64,000 nucleotides of DNA from a virus. Under the pieces are notes generated by a model. The model had not been told where the DNA came from. It worked only from the letters and a program-made list of their open reading frames with translations, and made no database searches. The number at the start of each line of letters is the position of its first letter. Within the stretch, counting starts at the first letter, position 1. The DNA is taken from positions 1-64,000 of IMG/VR virus record IMGVR_UViG_3300033156_000392, one strand, 5' to 3'. The position numbers and the translations under genes are program-made. Shown here piece after piece: positions 9,741 through 59,156 of the stretch.

Positions 9741-9752
9741 GGAGGTGAGAAA

Positions 9753-10040: not shown

Positions 10041-10052
10041 GGGGAGAGAACT

Positions 10053-10472: not shown

Positions 10473-10476
10473 GAAA

Positions 10477-42059: not shown

Positions 42060-42080
42060 CTAAAATAACTGTTATTTTAG
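42060..42080. promoter_or_regulatory. 21-bp palindromic operator-like site (perfect copy)
   Basis: CTAAAATAAC-T-GTTATTTTAG just upstream of gene start 42048. Confidence 0.75.
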
Positions 42081-42289
42081 CACCTCCTTCTTTCTCTTTC
42101 TCACGTGTATCACCAGTGTTTTCTTCTCTCTGTCGACTACTATTCTCCCCTCAAGATCGTCTTCCTTCTTGAATCCGAGCTGTCTCAAGTAGAACCAAGC
42201 TATGGGGAAGATTCTTGACGCCTTCACTCTCACGAACTTCTTCCACTGCTTCTCTTCATATTTGTTTGTGGAGTCTGTATCCATTCCTA

Positions 42290-42640
42290 TCACGACCCAG
42301 ACTTAACTACTCCGAGTATTCCCAAGTTGAGGATGACGCCAGCTATGAAGGCGAAGGCGAAGAGAACTGCCGTGAGATTGGTAGCCCATATGCCAGTGAG
42401 AGAGAAGACAAAAGGCTCCGCTACCTTCCAAGCGACTAAGAGCTGTAGGAGAACTCCTATGAGAGGGATTAGAGCAAGCAAGACCGTCAAGCTCAAGAAG
42501 AAGCTGTAGAGAAGGGTTGCGAGAAAGCCCGAGACTCCTCCGTATACGAAGTATCCAAGGGAGCCGAGAACTATCCATATTGGTGTGGCTTCCCAACTCT
42601 CCCATATTTTTTTCACTTTTGTCCACTCTCCTACGTTCAT
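42290..42640 (-). CDS. Multi-pass membrane protein
   Basis: 3-4 hydrophobic segments. Confidence 0.6.
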   Translation of the reverse strand: MNVGEWTKVKKIWESWEATPIWIVLGSLGYFVYGGVSGFLATLLYSFFLSLTVLLALIPLIGVLLQLLVAWKVAEPFVFSLTGIWATNLTAVLFAFAFIAGVILNLGILGVVKSGS

Positions 42641-44041
42641 CAGACACCTATCGTCTTCTTGGTTTATAAACCTATTCTTTGTTTATAAACTTCCGTACTT
42701 CTTTTATACGAGAAGCTGGATGCGAAGTGACCTTCTTGTAACGTGTGCGGGAGGAAGGATGAGAGAGATGGTGAGGAGAGGTCTCCAGCACTCTCTCCTG
42801 CACTGTATGAAAGCCGTGTGGAGCCTCTCCTTACCCTTCTTTCTCTCCCAGCTGGCATGTATGTCACCCTCTCTCACCTCTACTCAGAGGCGTTCTCAGT
42901 AGTATTCCTTACCGTCTCCGCTCTGGTCGGCTATGTCCTGTGGCGTAAGGCCGTAGAATCTCACCAAGTCTCTGAGAACGTGTACCTTTGCCTCGTCTCT
43001 GATTAGCTGTTCCACTGGCAGGGTGAAGAAGCCCATGAATATTGATCTCGCCAGCACGTACTTCTTTCTCTCGTCGATGTTCATCTTCTTTATTCTGTCC
43101 AGCACTCTGAACAGCTTGTGTACGAACTCTGAGCAGGCTTTTCCTGTTTCATCGACTAGCTTCCTGATGTCGTCCCTGTCCTTCTCCTCCACTTTCAGGT
43201 CGTTCAGAACCAAGTCCAGAGGGTCTACTCTCTCCTCTGTCTTCTTTTCCTCCACTTCTGTCACTTTCTCTCACCTCCTTTTTCTTTCTCCTTCTCAAGA
43301 CTTTCTTGAGACAGTCCTCGTGGTAGATGCCCACTATTCTCATTGGATTGTATCTGTTTCTTGAGAAGGTTGCCTGAACGAGAGCGTATCCTCTCTCCGT
43401 CTTCTCACCACAGACGGTGCAGAGGAGATTGCTCTCAGACTTCACTTCTCTCTTTCTTGACATCCATCAACCACCTCCTTATTCTGTTGTGCTCTCTTGA
43501 CAGATTGAGAAGTGAGAGTGCCGCTCTTTCACTCTTCCTCTCCACCATCATCATTATCTTGTCCAGATACTCTTTATACGCTTTCACGACGTTCTCCAGG
43601 ATTTCCTCAGTAGAGCTTCCCTCAGTTTCTATCCGCACCGGAGGCACACTCTCCAGTCCAAGAGTCTGCATATATCTCGGCTCTGGATACCATATCGAGA
43701 TGTATTTCTTGAGTGTACGAGCTATCTCTTTCACTTCTTCTCCAAGCTCTTTGAGACTCTCTCTTTTTTTCATTCTTCCTCCTCCCAGATTCTTCTGATG
43801 GTCGTGACCATGTACTTCAAGAGAGCCTTTGCCGGATTCTTTCTGACCTCGTCCTCGTTGACGTCCGCTAGAAGCTCTCCGAGAGTGTAGAGAGACTCTG
43901 CCTGATCGGAGGCTCTGACTATGTCTCTCTCTGAAAGACCTCCATTGAAAGCCTCCACTGCCTCTCTCACTAGGTCTAGAACTAGCTCTTCTATCTCCAT
44001 CTCTCTCTCTTTCCTCCTCTCTCTTTGTTACTCTTCATGGC

Positions 44042-44815
44042 TCACTCCGTCTTCGGTAGGAGAAGGTCGAGAGCCACCGTCTCCAGAATTCTCTCTGCCA
44101 GTAGGTCCAGCTTCTTCTGCTTGTGTATCTCTGACTTGTACTTTCTACTGGTTATGGCTGAAACTATCCTCTGGAAGCAGTCCCAGACAGTCATGTCCTC
44201 TATTTCCTTCTTTTGATGGTCTACGGCTATTCTCTGCTCTATTTTCTCTTTAAGTCTCTCTCCAGCCTTTATTCTCTGAAGAATGGCTGTATACTCCTCG
44301 TAATCAAGTTTTCTCTGTGCTAGCTTCTCCACTATCGGTTTCCAGAGCTCTACGACCTTGTTTACCACCTTGAAGTAGTCCTGTACAGCGACGTCTATCT
44401 TTCCTCTGTGGGTCTTTCTGAAGGGTCTGGTGGCGGCCTTTGGGAGCTTGTAGTGGAAGCCTGTTACTCTGTGCACGAAGTCTATTTTGAGAGCGTTCTT
44501 GCCGTCAGCGGTGTTCATGACCTTTATCCCGACGTCGCTCTCCAGTGGGTACACCGTCATCTGCCCTCTTCCTTCCCAATATATCACTCTCCCCTCGATC
44601 TCCTCCGGAAGGTTCTTGAGTGCCTCTCTGTAGAGATCTCTGAACTGCACCAGCTTGTAGTACTTCGAGACCACCGATATGGCTTTCTTCTTCCCTTTCT
44701 CTCTTATGGCTCTGAGCTCCTTCTGCCTCTCCCAGCTTCCGTTGTCGTCTATGGCTATGTCCGTCATCTCAAGCTCCGGTAGCTCTGCAACTCTCTCCAG
44801 TAGCTCTTTCTTCAC
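44042..44815 (-). CDS. DUF932-like domain protein (putative)
   Basis: ISVVSKYYKLVQF, MNTADG and MTVWDCFQ echo DUF932/945 patterns. Confidence 0.45.
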   Translation of the reverse strand: MKKELLERVAELPELEMTDIAIDDNGSWERQKELRAIREKGKKKAISVVSKYYKLVQFRDLYREALKNLPEEIEGRVIYWEGRGQMTVYPLESDVGIKVMNTADGKNALKIDFVHRVTGFHYKLPKAATRPFRKTHRGKIDVAVQDYFKVVNKVVELWKPIVEKLAQRKLDYEEYTAILQRIKAGERLKEKIEQRIAVDHQKKEIEDMTVWDCFQRIVSAITSRKYKSEIHKQKKLDLLAERILETVALDLLLPKTE

Positions 44816-44828
44816 TTTCTACCACCTC

Positions 44829-45488
44829 CTAATTTAATAGTTTCTTTAGCTCATCTTTAGGGATGAGAGCAATCTTGTCTGAGAACTTCTTCTTACTCTT
44901 CAGGATGAAGGCCTCTCCCTTCCTCAAGACACGTCTGTACTCTCCGAGAAGCTTCTTTCTCCTCTCTACAGCCCTATCGAAGTCCAGCAGGATGTTGAGT
45001 ATCTTTCTATCACTAAGGTCTTCTATGTCCCTTCCACAATTCAGAGACCAGTAGAACTTTTGTACTTTCTTCATAATCTTTATCCCTTCCAATATCACGT
45101 CACCGAACTCCTCCAGTCCTTTCTCTCTGAGCCCGAAGAAGAACGTGTCTGGAAGTCCTTCTGAGAGAACATCTATCCTCTGGACGGTCCGGTACTTGTA
45201 TATTCCACCACGTCTCAGAGTGTACTCTGAGTAGATGGATATTCTATTCTCCCAAGCAATGGCAGAGGCTATGAGATGTACAGTTTCTTCCATTCTCTCC
45301 ATAAGGTCTCTGAGAACGGCTGGACTGATCTCTTTCTCTATCTCTTTCAGTGTCACCACTTTCTCTCTCCTCTCCGATACCAGCCTCTTGTACTCCTTCT
45401 CTTTGAAGAGGTTCACACGTTTCTGGAGGAGGCTTAGAGCCTTCAGCCTCTTCTTGAGCTCTTGGTCAATCATCCTCATCTCTCCCAA
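44829..45488 (-). CDS. Coiled-coil paralogue family member 1
   Basis: DQELKKRLKAL...MEETVHLIASA...LRRGGIY...KKFSDKIALI. Confidence 0.75.
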   Translation of the reverse strand: MGEMRMIDQELKKRLKALSLLQKRVNLFKEKEYKRLVSERREKVVTLKEIEKEISPAVLRDLMERMEETVHLIASAIAWENRISIYSEYTLRRGGIYKYRTVQRIDVLSEGLPDTFFFGLREKGLEEFGDVILEGIKIMKKVQKFYWSLNCGRDIEDLSDRKILNILLDFDRAVERRKKLLGEYRRVLRKGEAFILKSKKKFSDKIALIPKDELKKLLN

Positions 45489-46116
45489 GTGAGTTCAGAG
45501 CTATCTCTGTTGAGAACTTATCGATGATCTCCTCTCTCAGCTCGTCTATCTTCTGTTTCAGAGGGAGTGTTCGTCTGTCTATCTTTCTGAGCTCTCTGAG
45601 CAGCTTCTCCCCTTCTATGAGCGTTTCAAGAGTGTTGTCGAGTGTGTCAACCTTGAAGTAGATAGAGTCCTTCCATACCTTCTTGAAGAGCGTGTCCACG
45701 TGCTTTCTGAGCTTGAGAGAGTATCTGAGAAGCTCTTTCATCCTCTTCATCTTCGTCTTTCTGAGCAGCTCTCGCAAATCTTCTTCATCTATTACGAGAA
45801 GATGTACTCTCTCTGGAGAGTCAGACCAGAATATCCCTTCTCTCGGGACGTATGTGATAGCGTAGTCATCTAACTCCACTTTCACTTTCTCCGTGACCAT
45901 AGCACCAGCCACTCTGTGTATCAGACCTTCTATGGCGTCTGGAAGAGGTGTAACTCTTTCCATCAGCTTCCTCCTGAGTGCAACCAGTTCATCAAGGAGC
46001 TCTCTCTTCTCCTCTTTCATTCTCTTCTTCTCGTCCTCTACGTACTTCTGGAACTCCTTCTCAAGCCTCTGGAGAGTCTTGACTCTCCTCTGTAAATTCC
46101 TGTCCGTTTCTCCCAC
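45466..46116 (-). CDS. Coiled-coil paralogue family member 2
   Basis: IEGLIHRVAG...VPREGIF...DKFSTEIALNSL. Confidence 0.75.
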   Translation of the reverse strand: MGETDRNLQRRVKTLQRLEKEFQKYVEDEKKRMKEEKRELLDELVALRRKLMERVTPLPDAIEGLIHRVAGAMVTEKVKVELDDYAITYVPREGIFWSDSPERVHLLVIDEEDLRELLRKTKMKRMKELLRYSLKLRKHVDTLFKKVWKDSIYFKVDTLDNTLETLIEGEKLLRELRKIDRRTLPLKQKIDELREEIIDKFSTEIALNSLGRDEDD

Positions 46117-46545
46117 CTCTCTATCAGAGTACGTCGGGGTACCTCTCCAGGAGGTACGATGCTGGGTATGGTCTCCCGTCGACTTTCTTCCCGTCTCTCA
46201 GGAGTATTATCACAGCTATTTCGTTGACGTTGTCCAAGAGTATGACGTCACTGGCCAGCTCTGAGGCAATGTTCTCAAAGACCTCCTCTCTAAGCTCTGC
46301 ACCATATCTTTCCAACATTCTCTGGTCCACTCTCATCTCGGTTAGGATGCCCATTCGCAGGCCTTCTATCTCTCTCACTCACTCTACCTCTGTGGTCCAT
46401 AAATAGATGCAAGCGTTTCCACGTTCCATTTCTTCTCTGTACCCACGTTTGAGTTTCTTTCTCTTTTTCTCTGCATCCTTCCTTCTCTTGAATACATAGA
46501 CCTCTTCAACGAGCCCTCTCCACTCCAGAATTACTGCGTACACTT

Positions 46546-47244
46546 TCAAACTATCACCTCCTTTTTTTCTCGTTCTCGTCTTGAAGGAAGAAGAGCCAAG
46601 ATGTGAGAGAATTTCTCCAAGCTCCTCCTGATGAACTCGTCCGCCTCTCTAATAGCTTTCTTCCCTTTCTCCCTCCTTTTCAGCAGCTTCTCTCTCAGTT
46701 CATCATAGTGTATCAGGATGTCTACTATTCGGTCCTCTCCGAGGTCCACTCCAAGAGTCGTTAAGTCCAAATTCTCCAAGGGAGCGAAACGTTCGTGTAA
46801 GGAAGTGTAACGTGCTAGCCCCTTCAGCTTCCTTGCTATCTTTCTTCCTCTCTTGATGCATTGACCATACTGTATCAGGAGTTCGTCGTCCACAGTCCCA
46901 AGAAGGTACAGCTCTGGAAACTCTCTCTCGTCGGAGAGAATGTCCACTGCGTAACGTGCTCCGTACCGATATATCCCATCTTTTCTTATACTGTAGCTCC
47001 TGCCGAGAATGACTTTGCCCTTCACTAAGAAAATGGCAGAAGCTATGACGTCCATCGTCTCTTCCATCTCCTCCAGCTTCTCTGCAAACAGAGTCGTTTC
47101 ACTCTCTCTGTAAAGAGCTCTGAGAGCTCTCAGGTCTTCTCTTCTCTCTCTGATGATCCGTTTGTGCTCCCTCTCGATCATTCTCTCCACTCTCCTCCGG
47201 AGCTTTTCAAGAGCCTCTACTCGCTTCTTCAGCTCTCTGTCCAT
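46546..47244 (-). CDS. Coiled-coil paralogue family member 3
   Basis: MDRELKKRVEAL...MEETMDVIASA...IRKDGIY...EKFSHILALL. Confidence 0.75.
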   Translation of the reverse strand: MDRELKKRVEALEKLRRRVERMIEREHKRIIRERREDLRALRALYRESETTLFAEKLEEMEETMDVIASAIFLVKGKVILGRSYSIRKDGIYRYGARYAVDILSDEREFPELYLLGTVDDELLIQYGQCIKRGRKIARKLKGLARYTSLHERFAPLENLDLTTLGVDLGEDRIVDILIHYDELREKLLKRREKGKKAIREADEFIRRSLEKFSHILALLPSRREREKKEVIV

Positions 47245-47245
47245 G

Positions 47246-47872
47246 TTACGACACTCTCCCTCTCTTGAGCGTTGACAGAGCAAGCTCCTCCGAGAACTCC
47301 TCCATCATTCTCTCCTTCAGCTTCTCCAGTCTCTCTTCTATCTCTCTTCTCTTCTCTAAGTGTGCGTTGAGCTTCTCGAGAATTGTGTCGGCGTTCTGGA
47401 GTGCCTCTATCTGGCCGTGTAGGTAGCCAAGAGATGGTATGTCTGAAGGTTGTCCGGAACTTCTGTAGCTCCGATAGTTCGCCATTATCCTTTGGTACTC
47501 TTCCAAGCACTCTCCGAGTACTTCAAGTTTCCTCTCTCCGGACTCCTTGAGATATTTCAACACTGGTGAGGAGAAGTATTTCAAGTAGATTGGGTACTTA
47601 TGTCTGTAGTAGAAAATCCCTCTCCCGGGTCTGAGGCTAATCTGCTGGCTCACTGTCTTCGTCTCTGTATACATGTTTCCGGCTATCTGATGGAACATTC
47701 GTTCTATGTCTTCTCCCAAGTCTTTGTACACCTCTGCTTTCTTCTCCTCTATTTCCTTCAGGACGTCTTCTCTCTCCTTGACCAGCTCCATCTTCCTCTT
47801 CTCTATGAACTCCTCAACCCTCTCTCTGAGAGTTTCAAGCCTCTTGAGCTCCTCATTCAGCTTCTCATCCAT
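47246..47872 (-). CDS. Coiled-coil paralogue family member 4
   Basis: IERMFHQIAG...LRPGRGIF...EEFSEELALSTL. Confidence 0.75.
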   Translation of the reverse strand: MDEKLNEELKRLETLRERVEEFIEKRKMELVKEREDVLKEIEEKKAEVYKDLGEDIERMFHQIAGNMYTETKTVSQQISLRPGRGIFYYRHKYPIYLKYFSSPVLKYLKESGERKLEVLGECLEEYQRIMANYRSYRSSGQPSDIPSLGYLHGQIEALQNADTILEKLNAHLEKRREIEERLEKLKERMMEEFSEELALSTLKRGRVS

Positions 47873-48518
47873 TCTTCTTCCTCCTCAACGAGTACATACT
47901 CGCTTCCTCAGAGAATTTCTCCAGCATTTCTCCTCTCAGCTTCTCGATTTCTCTCTCAATCCTGTCTTTCTCTCTCAGAGCTTCTTCCAGTCTCTCTTTC
48001 TCCTCGTCTATCGTCGACAAGTACTCTATCATCTCTATCCCGTGGTAGTCCGGTCCAGCGTAGTATGGAGGGCTCTCAAAGCTATGATACAGAGCCCGTA
48101 GTCCCTCGTACAAGCAGGAGAGTCTGTGTATGTAGAAGCCGAGAGCTCTCACTCTCTCGTTCTCAGAGCTCATCATACTTCTTCCAGCTCCATCGTCATA
48201 GAATATCGGTGCTCTGTGTTTCTTTCTGTGGTAGAAAATTCCTCCGTTCGGTCTTATCACTAAGTATTCGGAGTTCAGATAGGGCTTCTGTAGAGGTATC
48301 TTGATGAGCTTGTTGCTCATCTCTCCAGCTATTCCGTGTATCAGTTCTTCCATCTCGTTTGTCGAGGGTGGAGAGAGTTCTTTATATAGCTCTCTCACCC
48401 TCATTAGCTCTTCGTGCTTGGAGTTCACGATTGTGTCTATCCTGCTGTATATGAAGTTTCTCACTCTCACCTTCAGTGTCTTCAGCCTTTCAGCCTCTTT
48501 GACAAGCTTAACGTCCAC
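47865..48518 (-). CDS. Coiled-coil paralogue family member 5
   Basis: MEELIHGIAG...IRPNGGIF...EKFSEEASMYSL. Confidence 0.75.
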   Translation of the reverse strand: MDVKLVKEAERLKTLKVRVRNFIYSRIDTIVNSKHEELMRVRELYKELSPPSTNEMEELIHGIAGEMSNKLIKIPLQKPYLNSEYLVIRPNGGIFYHRKKHRAPIFYDDGAGRSMMSSENERVRALGFYIHRLSCLYEGLRALYHSFESPPYYAGPDYHGIEMIEYLSTIDEEKERLEEALREKDRIEREIEKLRGEMLEKFSEEASMYSLRRKKNG

Positions 48519-48519
48519 A

Positions 48520-49137
48520 CTATCTCCTCCTCTCCTTCAGGAAGTAGAAGGTGGCCTCGGTACTCATCTTCTCCAGAAGTCGTCCTATCTCTCTCCAGAT
48601 TTCTCTGAACGTCTTCTTCTTGAATTTTAGGACTTCTCTTCCGTACTTCAGGTGACTGTCCAAGCGAGCAATGAAGTACAACCTCTCTCTCTTCTGCTCA
48701 GGGACGGCTGGAAGAAGGTTTCTTACCGAGAAATAGGAGTCCAGCAGTCCACGGACTCTTCCAAGAGTCTTAGCAATCTCTCTTACCTTCTCGTTCTTCG
48801 AGTTCAGCATCCCAGCTATCCCAATCAACGAGAGTACGTCGACTCTCAAAATCTTCTCTCTCTTCTTTCCTCCGTACAGTCCTTTCCCCGGACGTATGAC
48901 CAATTTTCCACACCGGACTGGCTTCTCTGCTATCTGCCCAAGCAAGCCCTGTATGAGGTCCTCCACCTTTAATATCTCAGGATAAGGGTTTGTTTTATCT
49001 ATTAGCTCTGTGTATTTCTTGAGCTTCCTCATTCTCCTTCTCTCCAGCTTCTCCATCTCTTTCTCCACAAAGGTAAACATGGCTGTCTCAAGCTTCTCCA
49101 GAGACTTAACTCTCGCAAGGAAGTCCTCATCTCTCAC
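48520..49137 (-). CDS. Coiled-coil paralogue family member 6
   Basis: VEDLIQGLLG...IRPGKGLY...EKMSTEATFYFL. Confidence 0.75.
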   Translation of the reverse strand: MRDEDFLARVKSLEKLETAMFTFVEKEMEKLERRRMRKLKKYTELIDKTNPYPEILKVEDLIQGLLGQIAEKPVRCGKLVIRPGKGLYGGKKREKILRVDVLSLIGIAGMLNSKNEKVREIAKTLGRVRGLLDSYFSVRNLLPAVPEQKRERLYFIARLDSHLKYGREVLKFKKKTFREIWREIGRLLEKMSTEATFYFLKERRR

Positions 49138-49756
49138 GTTTCTCCCTCGACAGCAGATAGAGAGGAAGGTCTTCTGAGAACTCGCTATAGACCTCTCTCT
49201 CGATCTCTCTAATCATCTCCTCAATTTTTCTTTTCCTTCTCAGCTTTCTTTTGAGTTCTCTCAGTACGGTCTTGTGGTTGAGAGCCAAAGACGCTTTCTC
49301 CTCCTCCGAAGTATTCTCTATCAACCAGACTCCGTACAGACAGGCATCCAGTTTCTCGTACAAAGCAGAAATTCTCTCCGAGAAGTCCGCCACCCTTATC
49401 GCTCTCTTCTCACCAGTTTCTCTGAGCTTCTTTATGAGCGTCTTAGAGGGGTAGTACGTAAGCAACATTCCTCCCTCATCCGAGAGTCTGACTCCTCTCC
49501 CCGGAACGATGAGTAGACTCAGACCGTTTATCTCTCCAAGATACACAATTTCTCTCAGGTCGGCAGAGAGAACGTACTGCAGGAAGTCCTCCAAGTTTCT
49601 CCTGACTCTCCATAGGTGTCCGTCCAATAGCTCGTGTGCGACTCTCTCTATCTTTCTAAGCTCTACTCTGTGCTCTCTCAGTATCCTCTTTATTTCAGCT
49701 TTCTTCCTGTAGACGTACTCTTCAAAAGTTAGTCCCTTCTCACGCTTCAAAGTCAT
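49127..49756 (-). CDS. Coiled-coil paralogue family member 7
   Basis: LEDFLQYVL...IVPGRGV...SEFSEDLPLYLL. Confidence 0.7.
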   Translation of the reverse strand: MTLKREKGLTFEEYVYRKKAEIKRILREHRVELRKIERVAHELLDGHLWRVRRNLEDFLQYVLSADLREIVYLGEINGLSLLIVPGRGVRLSDEGGMLLTYYPSKTLIKKLRETGEKRAIRVADFSERISALYEKLDACLYGVWLIENTSEEEKASLALNHKTVLRELKRKLRRKRKIEEMIREIEREVYSEFSEDLPLYLLSREKRER

Positions 49757-50423
49757 CCCTCCTTCTGAGAGCGTACATAGAAATCTCTGTGGGGAACTCG
49801 CTCGTGAGTTTCTCCACTAGCTTCGCTAGCTCCATTCTCAAGTGTCTCGCTTCCTCAGCCGCCTTCTCTGCTCTTTCCATCTTGAAGTCTATGAAAGCCA
49901 AGAACCAGAGTCGTTCGACTGTGTCAGAGGGTATCTCTGGCACTGAGCCCCTTATTTCTCTGTATCCCTGGACGATCTCGAGGAACGTATCCAGTCTCTC
50001 TCCCAGTTTTTTCTGCTTCTTGTCCTTACTTCCGTATAGCTCTATGATGACGTTTGTGATTTCTCTTATCGGAAGAGTCAGCAGAACGTACTTTATTCCC
50101 AAGTTTATCCCTACTTCGGGACTCTCTGCCGTCTTCACCATCCTCTCCAGCCGTATTTTGCCTCTCGTCACCTCTGTCAACAGTTCTCGTAGGAGAGATT
50201 CAACAAGACATAGCTCGTCTCCGAGTTTCTCCAAGTCTTTCAGAGTGTCGATGTACTCTCTCATTTTCTTCTCTCCTTCTTTCAGCATTCTCTCCTTCTC
50301 GCTGAGTATGAAGCCTCTCATTCCTCTCTCAAGCCTCTCAAGGGCGACCAGTGTTTTCATAATACTCCTCTCCGGCATTTGTTCTTTTTTCTCCATTCTA
50401 CCAGCCACTACTTCAGAAGCCAT
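49740..50423 (-). CDS. Coiled-coil paralogue family member 8
   Basis: LERLERGMRGF...VESLLRELL...SPEVGI...SEFPTEISMYAL. Confidence 0.7.
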   Translation of the reverse strand: MASEVVAGRMEKKEQMPERSIMKTLVALERLERGMRGFILSEKERMLKEGEKKMREYIDTLKDLEKLGDELCLVESLLRELLTEVTRGKIRLERMVKTAESPEVGINLGIKYVLLTLPIREITNVIIELYGSKDKKQKKLGERLDTFLEIVQGYREIRGSVPEIPSDTVERLWFLAFIDFKMERAEKAAEEARHLRMELAKLVEKLTSEFPTEISMYALRRRDDFEA

Positions 50424-50953
50424 ATACAGAGCCTCTCTGAGTGCTTCATAACGAAGTCCTTGAGAATTTCTTCCGCCTCCTCCGCTTTCTCTCTCGTTTC
50501 CATCAGCATCTTCGCTAGCTCTCTCTCTATTCTCTTCCTATGTCTATAGAAGCACTCATAAGAGGTTGGGTCCTCCGGGTTAATAAATCTCTCTCCTCTC
50601 TTTATTCGGAGTTTAGAGTCTATAATGAGGGTAAATTCACTATTTAGTCGTTTCTCTCTCTTCTTTAGAGTAAATATCTTGTTTATTTTTCTGTATATGG
50701 AAAATAGTCCCTTTATGACCTCTATTTTGTCTTTACTGAGAGAATATATATCTATTCGTTCGCCTTCCCAAGTGTAGATGCCGTTTCTCCTAAGTAGCAC
50801 CTCTCTCTCCAGCTCACTCTCTATCAACTTGAGTACTTTGGCTACTATATTCCTGTGTGCTCTTCTCCAGATGCCCTCCACGTACAGGTGGAGCTCGCTC
50901 AGATGTTGGTAGACGCTCCATTCTCTCAACCAGAAGGCTTCTTCTCTTCTCAC
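50408..50953 (-). CDS. Divergent possible member 9 of the paralogue family
   Basis: LLRRNGIY...MKHSERLCIWLL. Confidence 0.5.
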   Translation of the reverse strand: MRREEAFWLREWSVYQHLSELHLYVEGIWRRAHRNIVAKVLKLIESELEREVLLRRNGIYTWEGERIDIYSLSKDKIEVIKGLFSIYRKINKIFTLKKREKRLNSEFTLIIDSKLRIKRGERFINPEDPTSYECFYRHRKRIERELAKMLMETREKAEEAEEILKDFVMKHSERLCIWLLK

Positions 50954-51375
50954 ACAATCTCACCTATCTTCTTTTCAGGAGCTTCCAGAGTCCAAGCTTC
51001 CCTATGAAGGTCCAGTACTTTTCTCTCCCCAAGAATCTCTCTCCCCATCTCTCGGAGAAGGCTTTGGGGCAGTCTATGACGTGCTTCGGGAGAGTTTCTA
51101 TGATGTATTTCTTCAGTTTCTCCTCGCTCTCGAAGCTCAAGTAGAAGCTCTTGTCTTTTCCGGCTACTCTGACTATCTCTGCTTTCTTGTCCAGAGCACC
51201 TCTCAGTATCTCTGACGCTATCGAAGGGTCTATGGACTTGAAGGGGAAGCTGAGTATCCTCCACTCTCCCTCGTAGGCTCTGTGAACCCAGAGAGCCTCT
51301 CTCCACGTGGGGAGGAGTCCCTCTATGTAGCACAGCAGTTTCTTCCTACTCATACTTCTTCCTCGCTCTGTAATC

Positions 51376-51396
51376 CTAAAATAATCATTATTTTAG
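51376..51396. promoter_or_regulatory. 21-bp palindromic operator-like site
   Basis: CTAAAATAAT-C-ATTATTTTAG, intergenic. Confidence 0.75.
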
Positions 51397-51400
51397 CTCT

Positions 51401-51772
51401 CTACTGCTGGCTCGCTCCCTCTGACAGGATCTCAATCGCTATGTTCTGGTATATCTCGTCCCAGTCCTCATCAGTCATTCCAAGCACTGTTTTGCTCTCT
51501 CTTATGAACTTCTTCGTGTACTTCTTCATATATTTGGAGAGGTACTTGATGAACTCTATCATTTTCTTTCTCCTCTTGAATATGAAGAATATGTACGATT
51601 TCTTCACAAGCGGAATTTCTATTTCTCCCCTCAGTGCTATTCCTCTCTTCACTATCTCCGTAAGCGTCTCACTCCTAAAGCCGTACGCTTTGAAAAACAC
51701 TCCGTTAAAGCCGGAATTGTACCACAAGAGAGTCCCGAATATCTTCATTTCTCCTATCACTTTGTCCACCAT
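51401..51772 (-). CDS. Hypothetical protein, paralogue of 51815-52189
   Basis: KKFIRESKTVLGMTDEDWDEIYQNIAIEILSE. Confidence 0.65.
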   Translation of the reverse strand: MVDKVIGEMKIFGTLLWYNSGFNGVFFKAYGFRSETLTEIVKRGIALRGEIEIPLVKKSYIFFIFKRRKKMIEFIKYLSKYMKKYTKKFIRESKTVLGMTDEDWDEIYQNIAIEILSEGASQQ

Positions 51773-51791
51773 CTCACCTCTCTTTCTTTTG

Positions 51792-51812
51792 CTAAAATAA
51801 CAGTTATTTTAG
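51792..51812. promoter_or_regulatory. 21-bp palindromic operator-like site
   Basis: CTAAAATAAC-A-GTTATTTTAG, intergenic. Confidence 0.75.
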
Positions 51813-51814
51813 GA

Positions 51815-52189
51815 CTACTGAGTCCTCTCAGCAAGCCTGTTTACGACGACGTTGCTCTCTATAGTCTGGTACTCCTCCTCACTCAGTCCAAGTTTCTCTC
51901 TTCCTTCGAGTCTGAACTTCCTCGTAAGACTCCTCAGAACGGTGCTGAGGTAGAGGAGAAACTCTCTCAATTTCTCCATACGTTGAAACCGGAGAACCAG
52001 CGTCGCTCTCGACTTAGACCGAAACGCTGACGTGAACAGCAGGAGAGTCGCTCCTCTCTCCACACCCTCTTTCACTATGTCCGTGAGAGCCTGTGCCGGA
52101 AGGGTGTCTGCTCTGAAACTTATGTCTCTCTCCATCTCGAACCAGACCGGAATCTTCTTCTCGGTCATTCTGCCTATCATCAGAGTCAT
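51815..52189 (-). CDS. Hypothetical protein, paralogue of 51401-51772
   Basis: RKFRLEGREKLGLSEEEYQTIESNVVVNRLAE. Confidence 0.65.
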   Translation of the reverse strand: MTLMIGRMTEKKIPVWFEMERDISFRADTLPAQALTDIVKEGVERGATLLLFTSAFRSKSRATLVLRFQRMEKLREFLLYLSTVLRSLTRKFRLEGREKLGLSEEEYQTIESNVVVNRLAERTQ

Positions 52190-52208
52190 ATGCTCGCCTC
52201 TCTCTTCC

Positions 52209-53468
52209 TCACTCTTCCTTCCGTATTCTGGTAGTTCTCCCAAATGGTACTTCTTCCTCTGCCTTACCGTCTGGTGTCAGTATCCAGAGTGTCTCGTGTC
52301 TTCCTCTCCTCTCTGGGAAGTCTCCGTACCCGTCGGTGAAGTAAATCAGCAGTTTCGCTCTCTTCTTATGCTCTCTTATCCACTCGAAGACTGGTCTGAA
52401 GTCCGTCCCACCGTATCCAGTCCTCTTGAAGACTCTCTTTCTGGAGACCTTCTCAAGAGGTTCTGCCATCTTGATGCTGGCGTCGCACTCTATGTATGTC
52501 CCTCTCAGTGTGTCTCTGTGTATGTCGAATATTCTCCTAATCTCTCCCATAAACTGAGAGTAGTCCTCGTCAGATATTGACCCAGACGTGTCCACCGCTA
52601 TCACTATGTCTATCTTCTCCTTGAGTACTGATGGGAAGTATGTCCCGAGTGTCTGAGAACGTTTGTGCGGTCTTCGCCAAGTGTAGTCTTTTGGTATCTC
52701 TTTCGTGATGTATCTCCATAGCATCTGCTTCCACCCAAGTTTAGACGGTAGTATCTTGTCTATCAGTTTCTGTAGTCCTGCTGGCAGTTTTCCCTGTACC
52801 TTAGCGAATGTGGCGGCCTTGATGGTGATGTCCTTCCAGAACTCTCCTATGTCCGTCTCCGGATGTTTAAAAGGCTCTTCGTTGCCTCCGGAGCCCTTCT
52901 CGTCCTTCTTTCCCTCGTTGTCTTCTCCCTCTTCGCCATAGAACCCTTCTTTCTTGTCGTTGTGGGTGTCGAACTGCTTCTGGAGTATTCCCTTTCCTTC
53001 TCTGTCTCCCTTTCCGTCTCCACCACTTCCAGAGACGGGTATGTGTATCTTCTTTGCGTTCTTCATCAAGTAGTCGTAGACCGCCTCTACCACCTTGCCT
53101 CTGAACGTCTCCAGCGGCTGTATTGCGAAGTCTGGCACTGGACTCCCAGACTCGTAGAGCATAGTGTTCACGACGTAGTCTCCCGCTATATTCCAGACGA
53201 CTGGCTCTCTCCCCTGTCTCCTCAACAAGTGCTCAAGTATCAGATGGAGTATCTCGTGCTTTATGACGAACTGTAGTTCTATGTCTCCCAGCTTCTTCAC
53301 GAAGTCTGGATTGTACGGTACGTTTCCGTATCTGTCTACTCCCATCGTCGGTATCTTCTTGTTCTCTCTGAACTTCAGGTATGTGGCTATGTAGGAGAAG
53401 AACGGCTCTTCTTCCTGTAGGAGAACTATGGCTCTCGTTATTCTCTCTCTTGGAGTCAGTTGAAACAC
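52209..53468 (-). CDS. Metallopeptidase-like (HExxH) plus vWA domain protein (DUF2201-type)
   Basis: PTMGVD, KHEILH, WNIAGD; MIDAS DTSGSI, GGTDFRP, YFTDGYG. Confidence 0.9.
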   Translation of the reverse strand: MFQLTPRERITRAIVLLQEEEPFFSYIATYLKFRENKKIPTMGVDRYGNVPYNPDFVKKLGDIELQFVIKHEILHLILEHLLRRQGREPVVWNIAGDYVVNTMLYESGSPVPDFAIQPLETFRGKVVEAVYDYLMKNAKKIHIPVSGSGGDGKGDREGKGILQKQFDTHNDKKEGFYGEEGEDNEGKKDEKGSGGNEEPFKHPETDIGEFWKDITIKAATFAKVQGKLPAGLQKLIDKILPSKLGWKQMLWRYITKEIPKDYTWRRPHKRSQTLGTYFPSVLKEKIDIVIAVDTSGSISDEDYSQFMGEIRRIFDIHRDTLRGTYIECDASIKMAEPLEKVSRKRVFKRTGYGGTDFRPVFEWIREHKKRAKLLIYFTDGYGDFPERRGRHETLWILTPDGKAEEEVPFGRTTRIRKEE

Positions 53469-53545
53469 TTTCTACCACCTCCTTATCTTTCTCTCTCAAA
53501 CTATGTATGGGGATCGCTAATAAAGTGTATGGGAGAGAGACGTTC

Positions 53546-54280
53546 TTACTTGTCTCTCTCCAGAAGTTTCACGGAGACGTATGGTGCGGCTATCATATAG
53601 GCCGCCCTCACTCTTTCCTCTAAGTCGTCTCTGAACTTCCTGAACTCCTCTACTCTCTTTCTGACTTCCTGTCTGATGAACTCCTCGTGTATGTAGAAGA
53701 GAGTCAGAGAGTCGAGGTCGCTGTAGAGTCGTGTCCTTATACCGTAAAGTTTGCTCTGAACCTCTATGCTTGTGTACGGAAACGCTATCCACAGTTCGAC
53801 TGTCTCTGTCTCCACTGTATACTTCGTCTTCCACTCCACGCCCTTCACTTGCTTCAGACACTCTATCAGAGTCTTCAGCATTTCCTTCTTTGTGGGTCTG
53901 ACGTTCGCTCTCGCTTCCTCTGTCTGGAGAAGGTCTATGAACTTCTCTATCTTATATGACCTCGCATAGACGCTGTCGTCGTATACCTTGAACTCAAACA
54001 CACTCCCTCGCCCACTGTTGTAGTACCCTTTGTAGACGAGTCCCGTGTTCGTTATGGCGACGTCGTCAAGGTCTGCTCTCTTCCTCATCAGCCCTCTCGA
54101 CAGTGTTCTTATCAGTTTCTCGTAGTTTGTACAGAGAGTATGTACGTCTTGGGAAATCTTCGTCACCTCTTTGTCCACCTCGCTCTTCCACTCCGTCAGT
54201 TCGTCTCTGAGTTCGTCTACCTCTCTCCAGAACTCGAAGTTCTGGGGCTGTGTGTACTCCTGCTCAGGCATCTCCACCAC
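53546..54280 (-). CDS. Coiled-coil-flanked hypothetical protein between the AAA and vWA genes
   Basis: Helix/beta/helix layout similar to the array; ends PYVSVKLL. Confidence 0.6.
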   Translation of the reverse strand: MVEMPEQEYTQPQNFEFWREVDELRDELTEWKSEVDKEVTKISQDVHTLCTNYEKLIRTLSRGLMRKRADLDDVAITNTGLVYKGYYNSGRGSVFEFKVYDDSVYARSYKIEKFIDLLQTEEARANVRPTKKEMLKTLIECLKQVKGVEWKTKYTVETETVELWIAFPYTSIEVQSKLYGIRTRLYSDLDSLTLFYIHEEFIRQEVRKRVEEFRKFRDDLEERVRAAYMIAAPYVSVKLLERDK

Positions 54281-54286
54281 TCTGTC

Positions 54287-55384
54287 TCAGAAGGTGTACT
54301 TGACTATCGTCTTTGAAATCTCCTTCCACTCCGGTATCTTTGCTGAGACTCTCCGTACGTACTTCTGGTGTCTGAGTACCAAGTTTCTCATCAGGACTAT
54401 TCCGAACTCTGGTTTTTCCCACGCTGTCTCTGTCAACTGTGCTATCTTACAGTATGCTCTGAAGAACTTCTCGTCCTCTTTGAAGAAGTGTATCAGAGCA
54501 GATGTCAGAGCCCATCTCTCGTTGAGAGCAGTTATGTCTCTCACTCTGTTGGGGTCTCTCACGAAGTCCTCCACCTTGTACTTCTTGACCAGTCGTGAGA
54601 ACTCTATGAACTCCTTCGCTATGCCGTTGCCCACCGATGACGCCACGAGTATCTCTATCTCTTTCTCGTCCTCTACGTCAGAGATTAGTTTAGAGGCTCT
54701 CCACCAACTCCTCGGAGTCGGGAAGGCTCTCTCCTCAGTGTTCTCTTCCAACTTGAAGAGATAGTCTGCTCTGAAGTTCAGAAATGCCTGTATCCTGTGG
54801 TCTACACCGTTCTTCATAGCCCACCGTGTCCAGATGTTTATGTGTGGCACTCTGAGTTCAACCCAGTCAAATCTGTTCTCAAGTGGCTTGGCCATCTCGA
54901 AGGTGTGTGCTCTGTCTTCCTCTTTGTTTCCAGCACCTATCACCACGTATCCCTCTGGGAGTACGTAGTCTCCGAGTTGTCTGTCCAGAATCAACTGGTA
55001 GCACGCACTCTGTATGCTCGGTGGGGCTAAGTTTATCTCGTCTAAGAAGATAATCCCTGCCCCTGTCTTTGGGAACCAAGATGGGGGTATCCACTTGGTT
55101 ATTCCACCGTGTCCGTTCTCCATTATCTTAGGCAGTCCGAGAAGGTCGCTTGGCTCTAACTGAGAAACTCTCCTGTCTATAAGGCAGAAGTGCTTCTCAG
55201 AGTTTATGTCCTCTGGTCGCTCTGAGTACTCGAGTTTCATAGACTCCGCTATCTCTTTGGCAGTCTTCCTGACTGTGTCCGACTTGCCTATCCCTGTCCT
55301 CCCCTGTATACAGAGAGGTATCCTCTTCTCATAGTGTCTCCGTATGACTCTCTCGAGTTCTTCGTGGTTCACTTCTCTCACCAT
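54287..55384 (-). CDS. MoxR-like AAA+ ATPase
   Basis: GRTGIGKS, DLLGLP, IIFLDEIN, GAGN, PLENRF, FPTPRSW. Confidence 0.9.
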   Translation of the reverse strand: MVREVNHEELERVIRRHYEKRIPLCIQGRTGIGKSDTVRKTAKEIAESMKLEYSERPEDINSEKHFCLIDRRVSQLEPSDLLGLPKIMENGHGGITKWIPPSWFPKTGAGIIFLDEINLAPPSIQSACYQLILDRQLGDYVLPEGYVVIGAGNKEEDRAHTFEMAKPLENRFDWVELRVPHINIWTRWAMKNGVDHRIQAFLNFRADYLFKLEENTEERAFPTPRSWWRASKLISDVEDEKEIEILVASSVGNGIAKEFIEFSRLVKKYKVEDFVRDPNRVRDITALNERWALTSALIHFFKEDEKFFRAYCKIAQLTETAWEKPEFGIVLMRNLVLRHQKYVRRVSAKIPEWKEISKTIVKYTF

Positions 55385-56692
55385 TTCACATCACCTCACT
55401 TTCTTTCTCCTCCTTCTTGTATGCCCGTATCATCGAGGCTGTGCCTCTCTATGGCCGTGAAGTCTACTCGTTCTTATCCTCTCCCTACTCTGCTGTACTC
55501 TCTCCAGCACTCCAAGTGTGTCATAGGTAACTCTCTTCTCTCGTACTTGAAGGTGTCTCTCCGGACTCTCCCTCTGTCTATGACCACCACTCTGTCGCCT
55601 TCCTTGAGTCTTCCTCCACATACGGGACAACGTATATCTCCCAAACTCATCACTCTCCTTTCTACTCTCGTTTAAATGTGTGCTCACCAGTCATCGGTCT
55701 TAGCACACTTTGAGCAGTAGTTTCCGTATCTCTCTTTCTCGTACTCCGTCAAGTGCTCTCCACAAGTCAGACATTTTTTCACCTTTCCACCTCTTTCTCT
55801 CTCAGTCTATTATTTTGATGTCTTTCTCCCACTCTCTCACGAGTTCTTCGACCGACTTGTTCTCTCCAAAAAACTCTGGATATTTCTTAATCTGTTCGAT
55901 GATGGAAGTCGTCTTAGGCTTCTCTTCCGTCTCTATGTGGACGTTCGCTGGGACTTTGTATTTCAGCGTTCCAGTGTCATCAACTACTGGGACTGTTTTC
56001 TCTTTGTCGATGTAAGGGAGTTCTTCGTACTCTCTACAGGAGATTAGTTTCCATTCCGTCACTTCTTCTTCACCTCCTATCTCTTTCTTTGTATGTCATT
56101 GAGGCTATGCCTCTCCATACTCGTGATGCTTCAGTCTGCTCTTCAGTATTCTCTCGGTCTGCTTCATATACTCCAGACGCCTGAGAACCCGCTTCTTCTT
56201 CTCTCTCAGTTTCTCCACTATGTCGTCAATCACTTCTACGAGTCTCTCTGCGTTCTTCTTGTACTCTTCTATGCTCTCCAGAACAGACTCTATTGTTTCT
56301 CTCTCCTTCTTGTTCAGAGAATCACCACTACAAGCCACAAGCCTTTCTGAATCTCTCTTCGTCGAAGTTCGGGTTGTCGTAGGCGAAGAGATTGCTGAAG
56401 GCTCTAACTGCTCTCTCCTTGACACTCTGTACGTCTATCGTCTTCAGAATCTCTGCCACCTGCTTGTAGTGTCTCCTTTGGAAGTCAGGCATTTGCTCTC
56501 ACCTCTCTTTATTTTCTATTCACAGGGTCTATCTTGTATATCTTCCTGAGCCTGTGTAGGAGTTGCTTCTCATTCCTTGCGTGTATCTCTCCCACTTTGT
56601 TTCCTCTGTCCCATATCTCCACGTCTCTAAGGCTCAGGCAGACCAACACGTAGTTTCTCACGGTTTCACCTCTCTCTTCCTCTCTCCGGATC

Positions 56693-56866
56693 TCACTCCA
56701 TCGCTATCTCCAGCAGGAGAGTGATGAGCGTCCCTGCCACAACTCCTCTCAAGAGGGCTGTGGGGCTCTCTCTCCAGCCGAGCACAAGTTGTATTCCCAG
56801 CACCAAGACCAGAGCCGCCACCAGTAGCACCGTCTCTCTAAGAGTCGGTTTCTCTCTCTTTTTCAT
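56693..56866 (-). CDS. 57-aa two-TM membrane protein (not in ORF track)
   Basis: MKKREKPTLRETVLLVAALVLVLGIQLVLG...GVVAGTLITLLLEIAME; palindrome copy just upstream. Confidence 0.5.
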   Translation of the reverse strand: MKKREKPTLRETVLLVAALVLVLGIQLVLGWRESPTALLRGVVAGTLITLLLEIAME

Positions 56867-57220
56867 ATCTCTATCTCCTAAAATAACTGTTTCTTTACGA
56901 CCATCTCAACTCTCCGAACATCACTATCTCAGGCGTTATGAGAGGCGTTATGGAGAGTGGTATGCCGGAGTGTCTCATAACGTCTATACCGTCAAATGAG
57001 CACTCTATCAGCACCAGAGTGGACGAGGAGAATAGTGTATTCCTCACCTCTCTCCTCTCTCCCTCTACTCCTACTCCACTCTCTCTAACGCCTCTAACGC
57101 CTCTCTTTCCTTCTTTTCTCACTATATCTCCTCTTTTCTCTCTACGAATGCTAAAAAAACAATTGCTTTAGGCTTCTCTCAGGCAGTTTCTACCGTAGGG
57201 CGGCTAAAATAACTGTTTCT

Positions 57221-57959
57221 TTAGTCTCCGTTTGCTATGAAAATGACTCTGTGCCATCGCTTCAGATGTATCTCCGGGTGCTGTGGGTGCTTTATTTTTT
57301 CCTTTTACGTAGATGCCTGTCAGTCTGTATTCTTCCAGATGTTCTATGTCTTGGACGGCTCTCACTCTGATTTCCTCCGCCTTGTGGTATCCGAGTTGCC
57401 ACTTCACCGACTTTCTCAAATGAAGTCTCACTGCCTTCGGAATTCTCTGTCTCGGTGGTCTCTCCGGTACGAGGTACAGGTCTCCCTGTCTCTTTACTTC
57501 CTTCTCTCTCTTCAGGACTTCCTCTGGGAAGAGTTTCTTTAGTATCTCTGACGGCTTGTCTTTCTTTCCCTTCTCCCTGAAGTAGAGTCTGCTCTCTGTG
57601 TACTGCTCTCCGTCTTTCAGTACGACGAGACACACCGGGGTTGTTGTCTGGAAGTAATAAATCTCCAGACCGAACTTTCGGAAAATCTTTCCCTCTTTTG
57701 CTGATTGTAGTGTCTGGTAGTTTTTCACAAGGTATCCAGCGAGTACTCTCTGCGTCTCCTCGTCCACGTCTTTGAACAACTCTCTCACTTTCGTTAGAGC
57801 CCTCTCTCCGATGCTCTGCTTCTCTGAGACCCACTCTGCTGGCACTCTCCACCTCAGTTTCCCTTTCTCGTCCACGAAGGGTATTGCTCTCTCTTGCTTG
57901 CTCCAGTTTAGTCTATTGTACTCTCTCCTCCCTATCGTAGTCCACTCCATCGCTTTCAC
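57221..57959 (-). CDS. RQGD/HxxH-motif phage protein, apparently frameshifted near the C-terminus
   Basis: VKRQGDLYLVP. Removing one A from the run at 57295-57300 gives GKIKHPQHPEIHLKRWHRVIFIANGD* ending at 57221. Confidence 0.55.
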
Positions 57960-59156
57960 CTCCTCCCACTCTCTCTTGGAGTGAGTATGAACTCGCTCTC
58001 TCTCATCTGTAGCACTCTCTCAAGGCTCTCAAGGCTCTTCGTCGCTACTCCCTCTCCGTCTATCACGACTGCCAAGACGACTCTATCTCTGTCTCTCACG
58101 ATCTCCCTCTCTCCGTTTCTTCTCTCATCAGAGCCTTGCTCTCTGGAGGTATCTTGATATTTGCTCCAGAGTGCTCTCACGGTCTCTATCCATCCACCTC
58201 ACCTGTGTGCTATCTGTATCCTTCTCAGACACAAGGGACAGACCGGACGTCCTCTCCAGTCTCTCATAGAGTCTGCAGTCCAGACTCTCTCGCAGGTGGG
58301 ACACTTCACTATCTCTATCCGTCTGCCCGTGAGTCTCTCGCTCTCGTTAAGAAGTTCTCCTTCCATATCTCTCACCTCTCTACTCCCATATATCGTGGTT
58401 GTTAACACAGTCGCAACAGTTCTGTACTATCCAGTCTTCGTCCGTCTCGCTTGCTCTGTACTCATTCCCACATACCGGGCACGTCCACACTTCTTCTTTC
58501 TCCATTTATCTCACTCCTTCTCTCACAGTCTCTTCTTCTCCACCTTCTCCATCAGACTGTCTCCGACTTTGATTTCCTCGCTCCCGACGTAGTTTATCCA
58601 GAGTTTGCCCCGTACCTCTTCCACGAATACCAGCCCTATATGTTCACTGCTGAAGGCGTTCTCTCTTCTCACCTCAAGACAGACGTAGTTCCCTTTCTTC
58701 ATCTCGTCTATCCGAATCTCTAAACCCATTCACATCACCTCTCTATCTCTTCGTCTCTCTAAGAAGTTGCTAAAATAACAGTTATTTTATCTCTTTCTCT
58801 TCTTCTCTCTCGTCGCTCTCTCCACCAGCATCGCTATCTCCCACGCTATCGCTACCGCCAGACTCGGAGAGTCCACATAACCCATCTCTAAGACCTTATC
58901 ACTTTCCATCTCAATACCTCTCCCTCGTCTATGCTCGCTGGTGGTCTATAAGGCTTTCTCCCTCTCCCTCTGTGGGGCTTTGCGTGTCCTTCTCCTCCTC
59001 CCCACGTCCTGAGTTGCTTCTTTGCTTGCTTTCTCCTCGCTCTCTCTTCGTCTATCTCCATCTTCTTTATTGTCTTCTGTACTATGTCTATCATAAAAGA
59101 GCAGTTAATCTTTCTGTAATACTCTAACTTCTCTTTCAGTAGGTCTTTAAGGTCTT

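Follow-up and report, generated by a model that had tools for sequence, protein, structure and literature searches.

What are the similar genes that stand in tandem behind a MoxR-like ATPase and a vWA-peptidase in the genome of an uncultivated virus, and do they work with that pair? The locus lies in the IMG/VR virus record IMGVR_UViG_3300033156_000392. The stretch analysed here (the window) covers bases 1-64,000 of this complete 73,253-bp record, which has direct terminal repeats. A sequence-only reading of the window had described an AAA+ ATPase, a linker gene, a HExxH+vWA protein, a paralogous pair and 8-9 further paralogues in one leftward run, and had proposed that the tandem array supplies adaptors or effectors which direct the ATPase/vWA machine to different host targets. 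We find that the record is very probably a complete tailed virus with an archaeal-type RadA and with eight tandem, anciently diverged orphan copies of a helical-bundle protein, a ninth copy and a half-copy being possible. Our best reading of the array, offered tentatively, is a lineage-specific expansion of a non-structural, host-interacting family with its own expression unit; its functional part is, if anything, a shade more tentative. A functional link between the array and the MoxR/vWA pair is a hypothesis that the genomic context disfavours.

The genes of the array are open reading frames (ORFs) on the minus strand. In an all-against-all comparison seven of them are joined by full-length BLASTP matches with E from 1e-27 to 1e-3 (for example p1-p3 at 1e-27, p4-p5 at 5e-20, p5-p6 at 3e-12 and p6-p8 at 7e-10). 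When the window's 652 six-frame ORFs are searched with a profile of these seven, the eighth, p7 (49127-49756), comes up at E 9.3e-10 and the next non-member at 0.0013. Moreover, the eight-member profile matches exactly eight places in the 73-kb genome (E 1.8e-78 to 3.6e-55). The members, together with the ORFs that were weighed as further copies, are the following (lengths in amino acids, aa).

43435-43773, minus strand: ORF of 112 aa, possible half-length relative, E 0.0013 among the 652 ORFs
44829-45488, minus strand: p1, array paralogue by BLASTP and profile, 219 aa from a TTG start (database form 216 aa)
45466-46116, minus strand: p2, array paralogue by BLASTP and profile, 216 aa
46124-46378, minus strand: small ORF s, 84 aa, which interrupts the array and has a 167-nucleotide (nt) gap upstream
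46546-47244, minus strand: p3, array paralogue by BLASTP and profile, 232 aa, start at ATG 47244 and not at TTG 47283
47246-47872, minus strand: p4, array paralogue by BLASTP and profile, 208 aa, the copy modelled with AlphaFold2
47865-48518, minus strand: p5, array paralogue by BLASTP and profile, 217 aa
48520-49137, minus strand: p6, array paralogue by BLASTP and profile, 205 aa
49127-49756, minus strand: p7, array paralogue found by the leave-one-out profile, 209 aa, the most divergent copy
49740-50423, minus strand: p8, array paralogue by BLASTP and profile, 227 aa, possibly starting at the later ATG 50378
50408-50953, minus strand: p9, 181 aa, doubtful member

Thus eight of the 8-9 paralogues counted earlier are true members and the ninth is in doubt. 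Searched with the family profile, p9 gives a non-significant hmmsearch E of 0.14, and the C-terminal motif profile gives no match in it. By hhalign it aligns over the central helix and hairpin at P 0.0033, compared with 0.093 or more for 8 other neighbouring proteins, and it is perhaps, doubtfully, a degenerate copy without the N-terminal helix. The ORF at 43435-43773 aligns to positions 120-212 of the family profile (hhalign P 0.0026) and would, marginally, be a half-length relative that retains the C-terminal half of the family. We also considered the small ORF s as a relic copy, which is unsupported (hhalign P 0.093; no match to the C-terminal motif).

No other paralogue family in the genome is as large as the array. 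The copies abut or overlap, with Shine-Dalgarno-like sequences upstream of most, and share only 17-32% identity. In their tree the terminal branches measure 0.75-2.25 changes per column, with p1+p3, p6+p8 and p2+p7 as starred sister pairs, and DNA repeats within the array are at most 44 nt long, at 60-76% identity to the reference copies. Because identities are this low, terminal branches this long and DNA repeats this short and diverged, the duplications are, as judged from sequence, old. The shared motifs named by the sequence-only reading can be recognised once the copies are aligned, from the N-terminal helix through E..IH.IAG and IRPGxGI(F/Y) to the C-terminal F(S/P)xE...L. The runner-up among the paralogue families has three members and lies outside the window, in the rightward part of the genome (65476-66129, 66131-67462 and 67459-68139, spanning 65476-68139 on the plus strand).

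The earlier statement that no described family matches the array is borne out at every level searched. Against 1.84 billion representative proteins, the eight-sequence profile (HMMER) recovered only the array's own eight, each letter-for-letter in the window, and a word-indexed search of 5.8 billion clusters returned three proteins, all on the 73,253-bp virus contig. Pfam gave no curated-level match for any of the 9 array genes, NCBIfam gave none, and PHROG gave none apart from one weak match of coiled-coil type. Matches in PADLOC had E 0.0013 or weaker and fell on helical stretches, and a sequence search of the Protein Data Bank (PDB) with the array profile reached a best E of 0.026. Atlas look-ups gave no usable feature match for p4, with structure TM of 0.50 or less, and scores of 0.84 or less for p3, which is within the chance range. 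A search of the literature on tandem paralogues in archaeal viruses turned up nothing relevant. By these searches the array family is new in sequence and a complete orphan.

What kind of protein might it encode? An AlphaFold2 model of p4, built from the eight sequences alone, has a mean predicted local distance difference test (pLDDT) score of 85.6 and a predicted template modelling (pTM) score of 0.71. It places helices at residues 3-48, 54-67, 103-109, 114-139, 151-159, 161-192 and 194-207 and a hairpin at 78-88. The N-terminal helix is thus 46 residues long, the second helix carries E..IH.IAG, the beta-hairpin coincides with IRPGxGI and the last helix is FSxE...L. On this model the array protein would be a soluble helical bundle of ~210 aa with one beta-hairpin. 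Conservation peaks in the N-terminal helix and again in the final two helices, and is lowest in two loops of p4 (~89-102 and 140-150) that hold indels. The earlier picture of a conserved scaffold with a variable tip is therefore fair as to the scaffold; the variation lies in two indel loops and in general divergence, and there is no separate tip domain. Foldseek found nothing at E 0.001 or below for the p4 model in the PDB (best E 1.5) or BFVD (best E 1.0), and an exhaustive VIA search gave a best Z of 7.8, to designed helical bundles, which calibration puts in the chance range for helical proteins. These fold searches used the whole p4 model, and a sub-domain may yet have a known fold.

Since homologues are found nowhere else, the genes might be chance open frames or decaying duplicates rather than functional genes. 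We regard this as scarcely credible. All eight frames are intact at 205-232 aa, their motifs are kept despite the divergence, most have their own Shine-Dalgarno-like sequence, and the p4 model is confident from only eight sequences. Moreover, the strand-specific composition skew is strong and agrees with coding on the minus strand, that of the array.

The virus that carries the array ends in an exact direct terminal repeat of 114 nt, and by its sequence it is a complete tailed virus. Its principal landmarks are as follows.

13747-15021: Mu-type portal
16794-19139: family B DNA polymerase
21542-22513: RadA/Rad51-type recombinase, full length
61667-62950: large terminase

By Pfam (Rad51 2.8e-36 versus RecA 4.3e-9) the recombinase belongs to the archaeal/eukaryal type, and its top solved relatives are chains named rad51 (E 1.1e-42) and RadA (5.1e-38). 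In 50,697 phage records the portal finds its top match in an Altiarchaeum virus, at 23% identity and E 1e-11. Charged residues are very abundant in the virus proteins, as is typical of thermophiles. The type of RadA, the portal match and the charge-rich proteins together make a thermophilic archaeon the likely host. Close relatives of the virus were found neither by word patterns of the terminase large subunit (TerL) in IMG/VR nor by RadA in genome contigs; Rfam has no match within the window and no tRNA was found.

All genes from ~28.8 to 59.8 kb lie on the minus strand. The leftward run described earlier is correct and at the same time unspecific, for this whole block runs leftward. Besides the array and the pair, the block encodes an RNase T-like exonuclease, a DUF559 nuclease and an AAA protein, while the portal, the terminase and other large genes lie elsewhere. 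A second AAA-type gene of the block (40483-41583, minus strand) matches DUF815 at E 9.1e-5, 22.2 bits against a cut-off of 23.8.

Upstream of the array, and directly behind it, the block holds these genes.

54287-55384, minus strand: MoxR-like AAA+ ATPase of the AAA_5 / midasin-CbbQ-MoxR clade, 365 aa (Pfam AAA_5, phrog_1297)
53546-54280, minus strand: linker gene, 244 aa, an orphan between the ATPase and vWA genes
52209-53468, minus strand: DUF2201_N metallopeptidase and DUF2201 vWA-like protein, 419 aa (PF13203, PF09967, phrog_1314)
51815-52243, minus strand: r2, first gene of the paralogous pair (BLASTP against r1), start more likely at ATG 52189
51401-51772, minus strand: r1, second gene of the pair (BLASTP against r2), 123 aa, with a palindrome on each side
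50964-51353, minus strand: q, 129 aa, an orphan with no Pfam or PHROG family, first gene past the palindrome
44042-44815, minus strand: gene behind the array, 257 aa, within the array's motif-bounded unit, sub-threshold DUF932

The ATPase and the HExxH+vWA protein are what they had been taken for. The ATPase passes Pfam AAA_5 (PF07728; 25.9 bits against a gathering cut-off of 22, E 1.1e-5) and matches phrog_1297 at 1.4e-80. In an alignment of 30 sequences its Walker A (G28, G31, G33, K34; GRTGIGKS) and Walker B (D115, E116; IIFLDE) residues are invariant. It fails AAA_3 (PF07726, MoxR proper; 16 bits against a cut-off of 27) and no NCBIfam model matched it; a profile of 30 viral homologues scores midasin at 1.4e-28 among solved structures, ahead of CbbQ (2.1e-6) and chain 2r44 (1.6e-5). 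Going by these matches, the label MoxR-like is therefore correct only if it is taken broadly, as AAA_5. On the same strand, 818 nt separate the ATPase gene from the vWA gene downstream. Both of its domains clear their cut-offs, DUF2201_N (PF13203) at 2.5e-39 with 136 bits against 23.2 and DUF2201 (PF09967) at 1.1e-19 with 71.2 bits against 26.4. The zinc motif HExxH(x4)H and the MIDAS motif DxSxS..T..D are intact: among 36 sequences H71, H75, H80, D293, S295, S297, T355 and D379 are invariant and E72 nearly so. PHROGs names phrog_1314, which the protein matches at 5.8e-85, 'HNH endonuclease'; this looks like a misnomer, because Pfam and the invariant motifs point to a metallopeptidase plus vWA.

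For the linker there was no Pfam family above cut-off and no PHROG, and a word-based search of 5.8 billion proteins returned the linker alone. The r1 and r2 proteins are indeed paralogues (BLASTP E 3.5e-12, 27.5% identity over 120 aa) and form a separate small family; r2 has no Pfam or PHROG family, and the AlphaFold model of r1/r2 (pLDDT 49.2) is too poor for a fold search. The gene q does not align with the array profile (hhalign P 0.55). Behind the array, the 44042-44815 gene reaches DUF932 below threshold (E 0.0046, 17.2 bits against a cut-off of 23).

Does the pair elsewhere travel with such an array? Homologues of the ATPase occur in 835 GenBank phage records, including coliphage N4 gp24 and cyanophage genes annotated 'MoxR-like ATPase', and those of the vWA protein number at least 3566 at E 1e-10 or below, with matches on at least 553 IMG/VR stretches. 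We examined 81 IMG/VR loci around vWA homologues, namely the best 80 of 553 confirmed stretches and 1 from a single-protein scan. The ATPase is present in 74 of the 81; in these 74 it is always on the same strand as the vWA gene and in 73 it lies upstream, at a median gap of 238 nt. With such constancy of order and strand, the MoxR-like/DUF2201 pair is an already known, widespread and ordinary phage module, to which the two genes of the window (members of PHROGs 1297 and 1314, like N4 gp24/gp25 and the genes of cyanophage S-TIM54) belong in the usual ATPase-then-vWA order. Gaps of 600-1400 nt occur in 14 of the 74 loci, so that the spacing of the window's pair is not rare. In N4 and S-TIM54 the pair sits among early/middle or unannotated genes, without an array; N4 gp24 is 28% identical to the window's ATPase (E 7e-28) and a 380-aa gene adjoins it. 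We found no assigned function for the pair in phages, literature searches on DUF2201 and the N4-like vWFA protein yielding genome notes only.

The window departs from this pattern in the 244-aa orphan between the two genes and in the array downstream. The array profile has no match in the 81 loci (best E 0.25 among 6884 ORFs), and neither does the linker (zero phmmer matches), r1, r2, q, p9, the small ORF s or the gene behind the array. Even where the pair resembles the window's most closely, in 6 loci with an ATPase E of 1e-55 to 1e-91, it sits within long runs of small genes, with no arrays. Only 4 of the 81 loci contain a tandem family with at least three paralogues, none of them related to the array. 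As the ATPase accompanies 74 of the 81 vWA genes and the array family none, the pair appears independent of the array.

The four families deserve a brief description. One locus (L009:828-5313, plus strand) holds ~12 tandem small Cys-rich paralogues (CxxC ... LPCG[CH] ... TPEELALALLMMEG) 3.4 kb upstream of the pair (MoxR 8713-9774, vWA 9920-11197), without significant similarity to the window's family. A resemblance of the array's C-terminal FSxE(L/I)AL..L to the ..TPEELALALLM ends of these proteins was rejected, the C-terminal motif profile giving E of 8.9 or more among 6884 ORF ends. A second (L030:18744-20225, plus strand) has seven tandem paralogues of ~70 aa (ELPDHPAR ... EALDxFY ... KML) 7.6 kb downstream of the vWA homologue. 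The third (L026) has large repeat proteins that are RCC1-like by eye, and the fourth (L070) has three large Cys-rich proteins whose CxxxCxxC-type motif would suggest radical SAM enzymes.

A dispersed 21-nt palindrome, CTAAAATAA-NNN-TTATTTTAG, bears on how the block is divided. Four perfect 19-nt cores occur in the genome (0 expected), and sites with 3 or fewer mismatches number 10 in the 73 kb (0.02 expected).

29878, 42060, 51376, 51792, 56878, 57151, 57204, 58770, 59881 and 60883: the palindrome sites, 21 nt each
51792-51812: perfect copy between r2 and r1
51376-51396: perfect copy just upstream of q, at the head of the array unit
42060-42080: next perfect copy downstream, with no copy between 51376 and 42080

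Nine of the ten sites lie inside the leftward block and one (60883) just past its right edge. Every site stands 11-40 nt ahead of a start codon, most directly after a stop. The sequence is TATA-like and recurs before other gene groups of this non-structural block. The two perfect copies that bracket r1 divide MoxR-linker-vWA-r2 from a 9.3-kb unit made up of q, p9, the array, the 257-aa gene and five small genes, which ends at the 42060 copy. Because two perfect palindromes lie between the vWA gene and the array, the two probably belong to separate transcription units, and if the palindrome is a promoter or terminator this argues for the array as a transcription unit of its own. The palindrome would fold only weakly as an RNA hairpin (-2.2 to -10.3 kcal/mol for 36-nt stretches at 37 C), so that, of the candidate roles of promoter, operator or terminator in a virus-specific regulon, a promoter or operator acting at the DNA level is the more likely. 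Neither the promoter/terminator nor the operator reading singles out MoxR/vWA as the partner of the array.

Such a dispersed palindrome needs a binding protein. The r1/r2 proteins might conceivably be regulators that recognise it; among the array proteins, 5 of the 8 have an isoelectric point (pI) of 9.5-10.1. Could the array encode a nucleic-acid-binding or regulatory family, whose basic helical members bind DNA or RNA or organise replication and transcription compartments, with the paralogues splitting tasks over the infection cycle? The other 3 of 8 are neutral to acidic (pI 6.0-7.8), charge being high in the family; Pfam finds no helix-turn-helix, ribbon-helix-helix or zinc motif, and no DNA-binding fold stands out in the structure search. 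We give this possibility a slim chance.

We next consider the proposal that the paralogues serve the pair interchangeably as adaptors, clients or substrates, with end helices that would dock on the vWA/MIDAS or peptidase domain and variable parts that would pick host targets for remodelling or cleavage. Conserved ends with variable loops would suit such a docking-plus-specificity design. The array lies on the strand of the vWA gene, ~1.3 kb downstream; however, a shared strand says little, because the whole ~30-kb block is co-directional, and the two palindromes with r2, r1 and q stand between. That the ATPase profile is nearest midasin (Rea1/Mdn1) is likewise suggestive. Midasin, the best solved relative, also partners an AAA_5-type ATPase with a MIDAS/vWA module, and its MIDAS domain pulls on client proteins. 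It is, on the other hand, one giant eukaryotic protein with six AAA modules, whereas the window encodes one 365-aa AAA module and a separate vWA-peptidase protein.

MoxR-vWA pairs do act on third proteins. In the Acidianus two-tailed virus (ATV), as a review has it, the MoxR protein p618 binds p892 (vWA), p387, p653 and p800 (PMC4124505). In the ATV genome (NC_007409.1) p387 (48392-49555, plus strand) and p653 (39432-41393, minus strand) are themselves paralogues, 56% identical over all of p387 (E 3e-142). Both p387 and p892 stimulate the ATPase p618. A viral MoxR protein with paralogous partners thus has a precedent, and ATV resembles the window in having an archaeal-virus MoxR-vWA pair that, by the account in that review, binds several virus proteins, two of them paralogues. 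The ATV partners differ in being dispersed in the genome, larger (387-800 aa) and virion-associated, p892 being a larger vWA protein, and the array profile has no sequence similarity to p387 (hhalign P 0.25). A second parallel is the ternary MoxR-vWA-VMAP conflict systems that Kaur, Burroughs, Iyer and Aravind (2020) describe in multicellular bacteria, where a MoxR-vWA chaperone core has a third, variable protein with effector or adaptor parts (PMC7159879). These systems are cellular, their effectors are fused to the vWA or VMAP proteins, and each has one VMAP and no tandem array (PMC7159879). Given that the array family is missing from all 81 other vWA-centred loci, the adaptor proposal is in our view unlikely. 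In its boldest form, eight to ten plug-in specificity subunits would dock by their conserved end helices on the DUF2201 vWA/peptidase protein, the midasin-like ATPase would give the force, and each variable surface would bring in another host protein, for instance a defence component, for unfolding or cutting; this we hold to be quite unlikely.

The ATV precedent raises a different possibility, namely that the array proteins serve as scaffolds, as assembly chaperones or as minor virion or ejection proteins, possibly matured by MoxR/vWA as in ATV tail development. The ATV MoxR clients are virion proteins, and p800 can, according to the same review, form long filaments (PMC4124505); the long helices and high charge of the array proteins would be in keeping with such a part. 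The array nevertheless sits in the non-structural leftward block, far from the portal (13.7 kb), the terminase (61.7 kb) and the large rightward genes. Moreover, eight divergent copies are unusual for structural parts, and the p4 model has no match to known virion proteins in BFVD or the PDB. A virion role is therefore very unlikely.

Lastly, we looked at variation in two public DNA runs (X1 and X2), labelled as sediment and seawater metagenomes, each of which has about half of the sampled words; no RNA run is listed among the carriers. Over 42000-58000 of the window both runs yielded the same set of short contigs. Of the X1 contigs, 31 of 52 have at least 99% identity and 8 have less than 90%; the corresponding figures for X2 are 31 of 51 and 8. 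Many contigs continue into unlike sequence (shares 0.51 and 0.40). Among the 12 of 56 loose contig ends listed are 42061 (at the palindrome), 54218 and 55797, together with 47791/47824, 49199 and 50468 within the array. The pattern points to related strains that differ in a mosaic way, in places within the array, and would fit turnover. The longest contigs that cover r2 (window 51818-52293; 1087 and 1528 letters) have 26-28 differences, those listed being clustered in r2. Because these far exceed the differences in neighbouring stretches, r2 seems to be a strain-variable gene. One contig in X1/X2 joins 55801 to 56086, skipping 55802-56085, which implies a strain variant without the 86-aa gene there. 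That gene (55802-56062) and the N-terminus of a 251-aa gene (57204-57959), both on the minus strand, form a further paralogous pair (BLASTP E 1e-4 or below).

We return to the tentative reading of the array as a lineage-specific, host-interacting expansion. Under it, the paralogues would be expressed as one unit of non-structural proteins. The conserved end helices would hold the fold, or a shared partner, and the divergent surfaces and loops would let each copy bind a different host factor, for example a defence or housekeeping protein. The MoxR-like ATPase and DUF2201 vWA-peptidase would be a separate, widespread module, whose adjacency would reflect a shared early/middle gene block. A parallel is offered by AcrID1 of rudiviruses: according to PMC11065993, clusters in four rudiviruses account for 26 of its 35 homologues, and early anti-defence genes are marked by regulatory sequences that they share. 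There, too, many divergent paralogues lie close together behind a virus-specific regulatory sequence with a TATA box (PMC11065993). The likeness is one of organisation only, and the window's array shares one upstream motif per unit, not per gene.

Several points weigh against this reading. No host target, anti-defence activity or expression timing emerges from our results, PADLOC and Pfam being blank. The analogy with anti-CRISPR (Acr) gene clusters would extend to organisation alone, and known Acrs are mostly far smaller. Copies that are ancient and all intact would suit eight separate housekeeping tasks during the virus cycle just as well. The position beside MoxR/vWA may matter after all, if the binding of two paralogous virus proteins by ATV p618 is a guide, and both units could share the palindrome as an operator, which would make them co-regulated, perhaps together with the rest of the block. 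In addition, X1 and X2, whose contigs are identical, could be a single data set or the data from which the record was made, and would then give no independent support. At present the array is an interesting orphan family from one uncultivated genome, short of a demonstrated system.

As an orphan family, the array is a clean example of deep lineage-specific expansion, with no relative in 1.84 billion sequences and no recognisable fold relative. Viral orphan expansions of this kind have often proved to be host-interaction or anti-defence proteins. Moreover, the MoxR-like/DUF2201 pair is present in hundreds of phages and we found no function assigned to it, so that any genome hinting at its clients is useful. 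Should the boldest form of the adaptor proposal be true, the locus would assign a function to this very widespread phage module for the first time, and would hold the first 'adaptor library' of an AAA+ machine in a virus. The virus of the window thus offers a concrete, testable candidate set of clients for the phage MoxR-like/DUF2201 pair.

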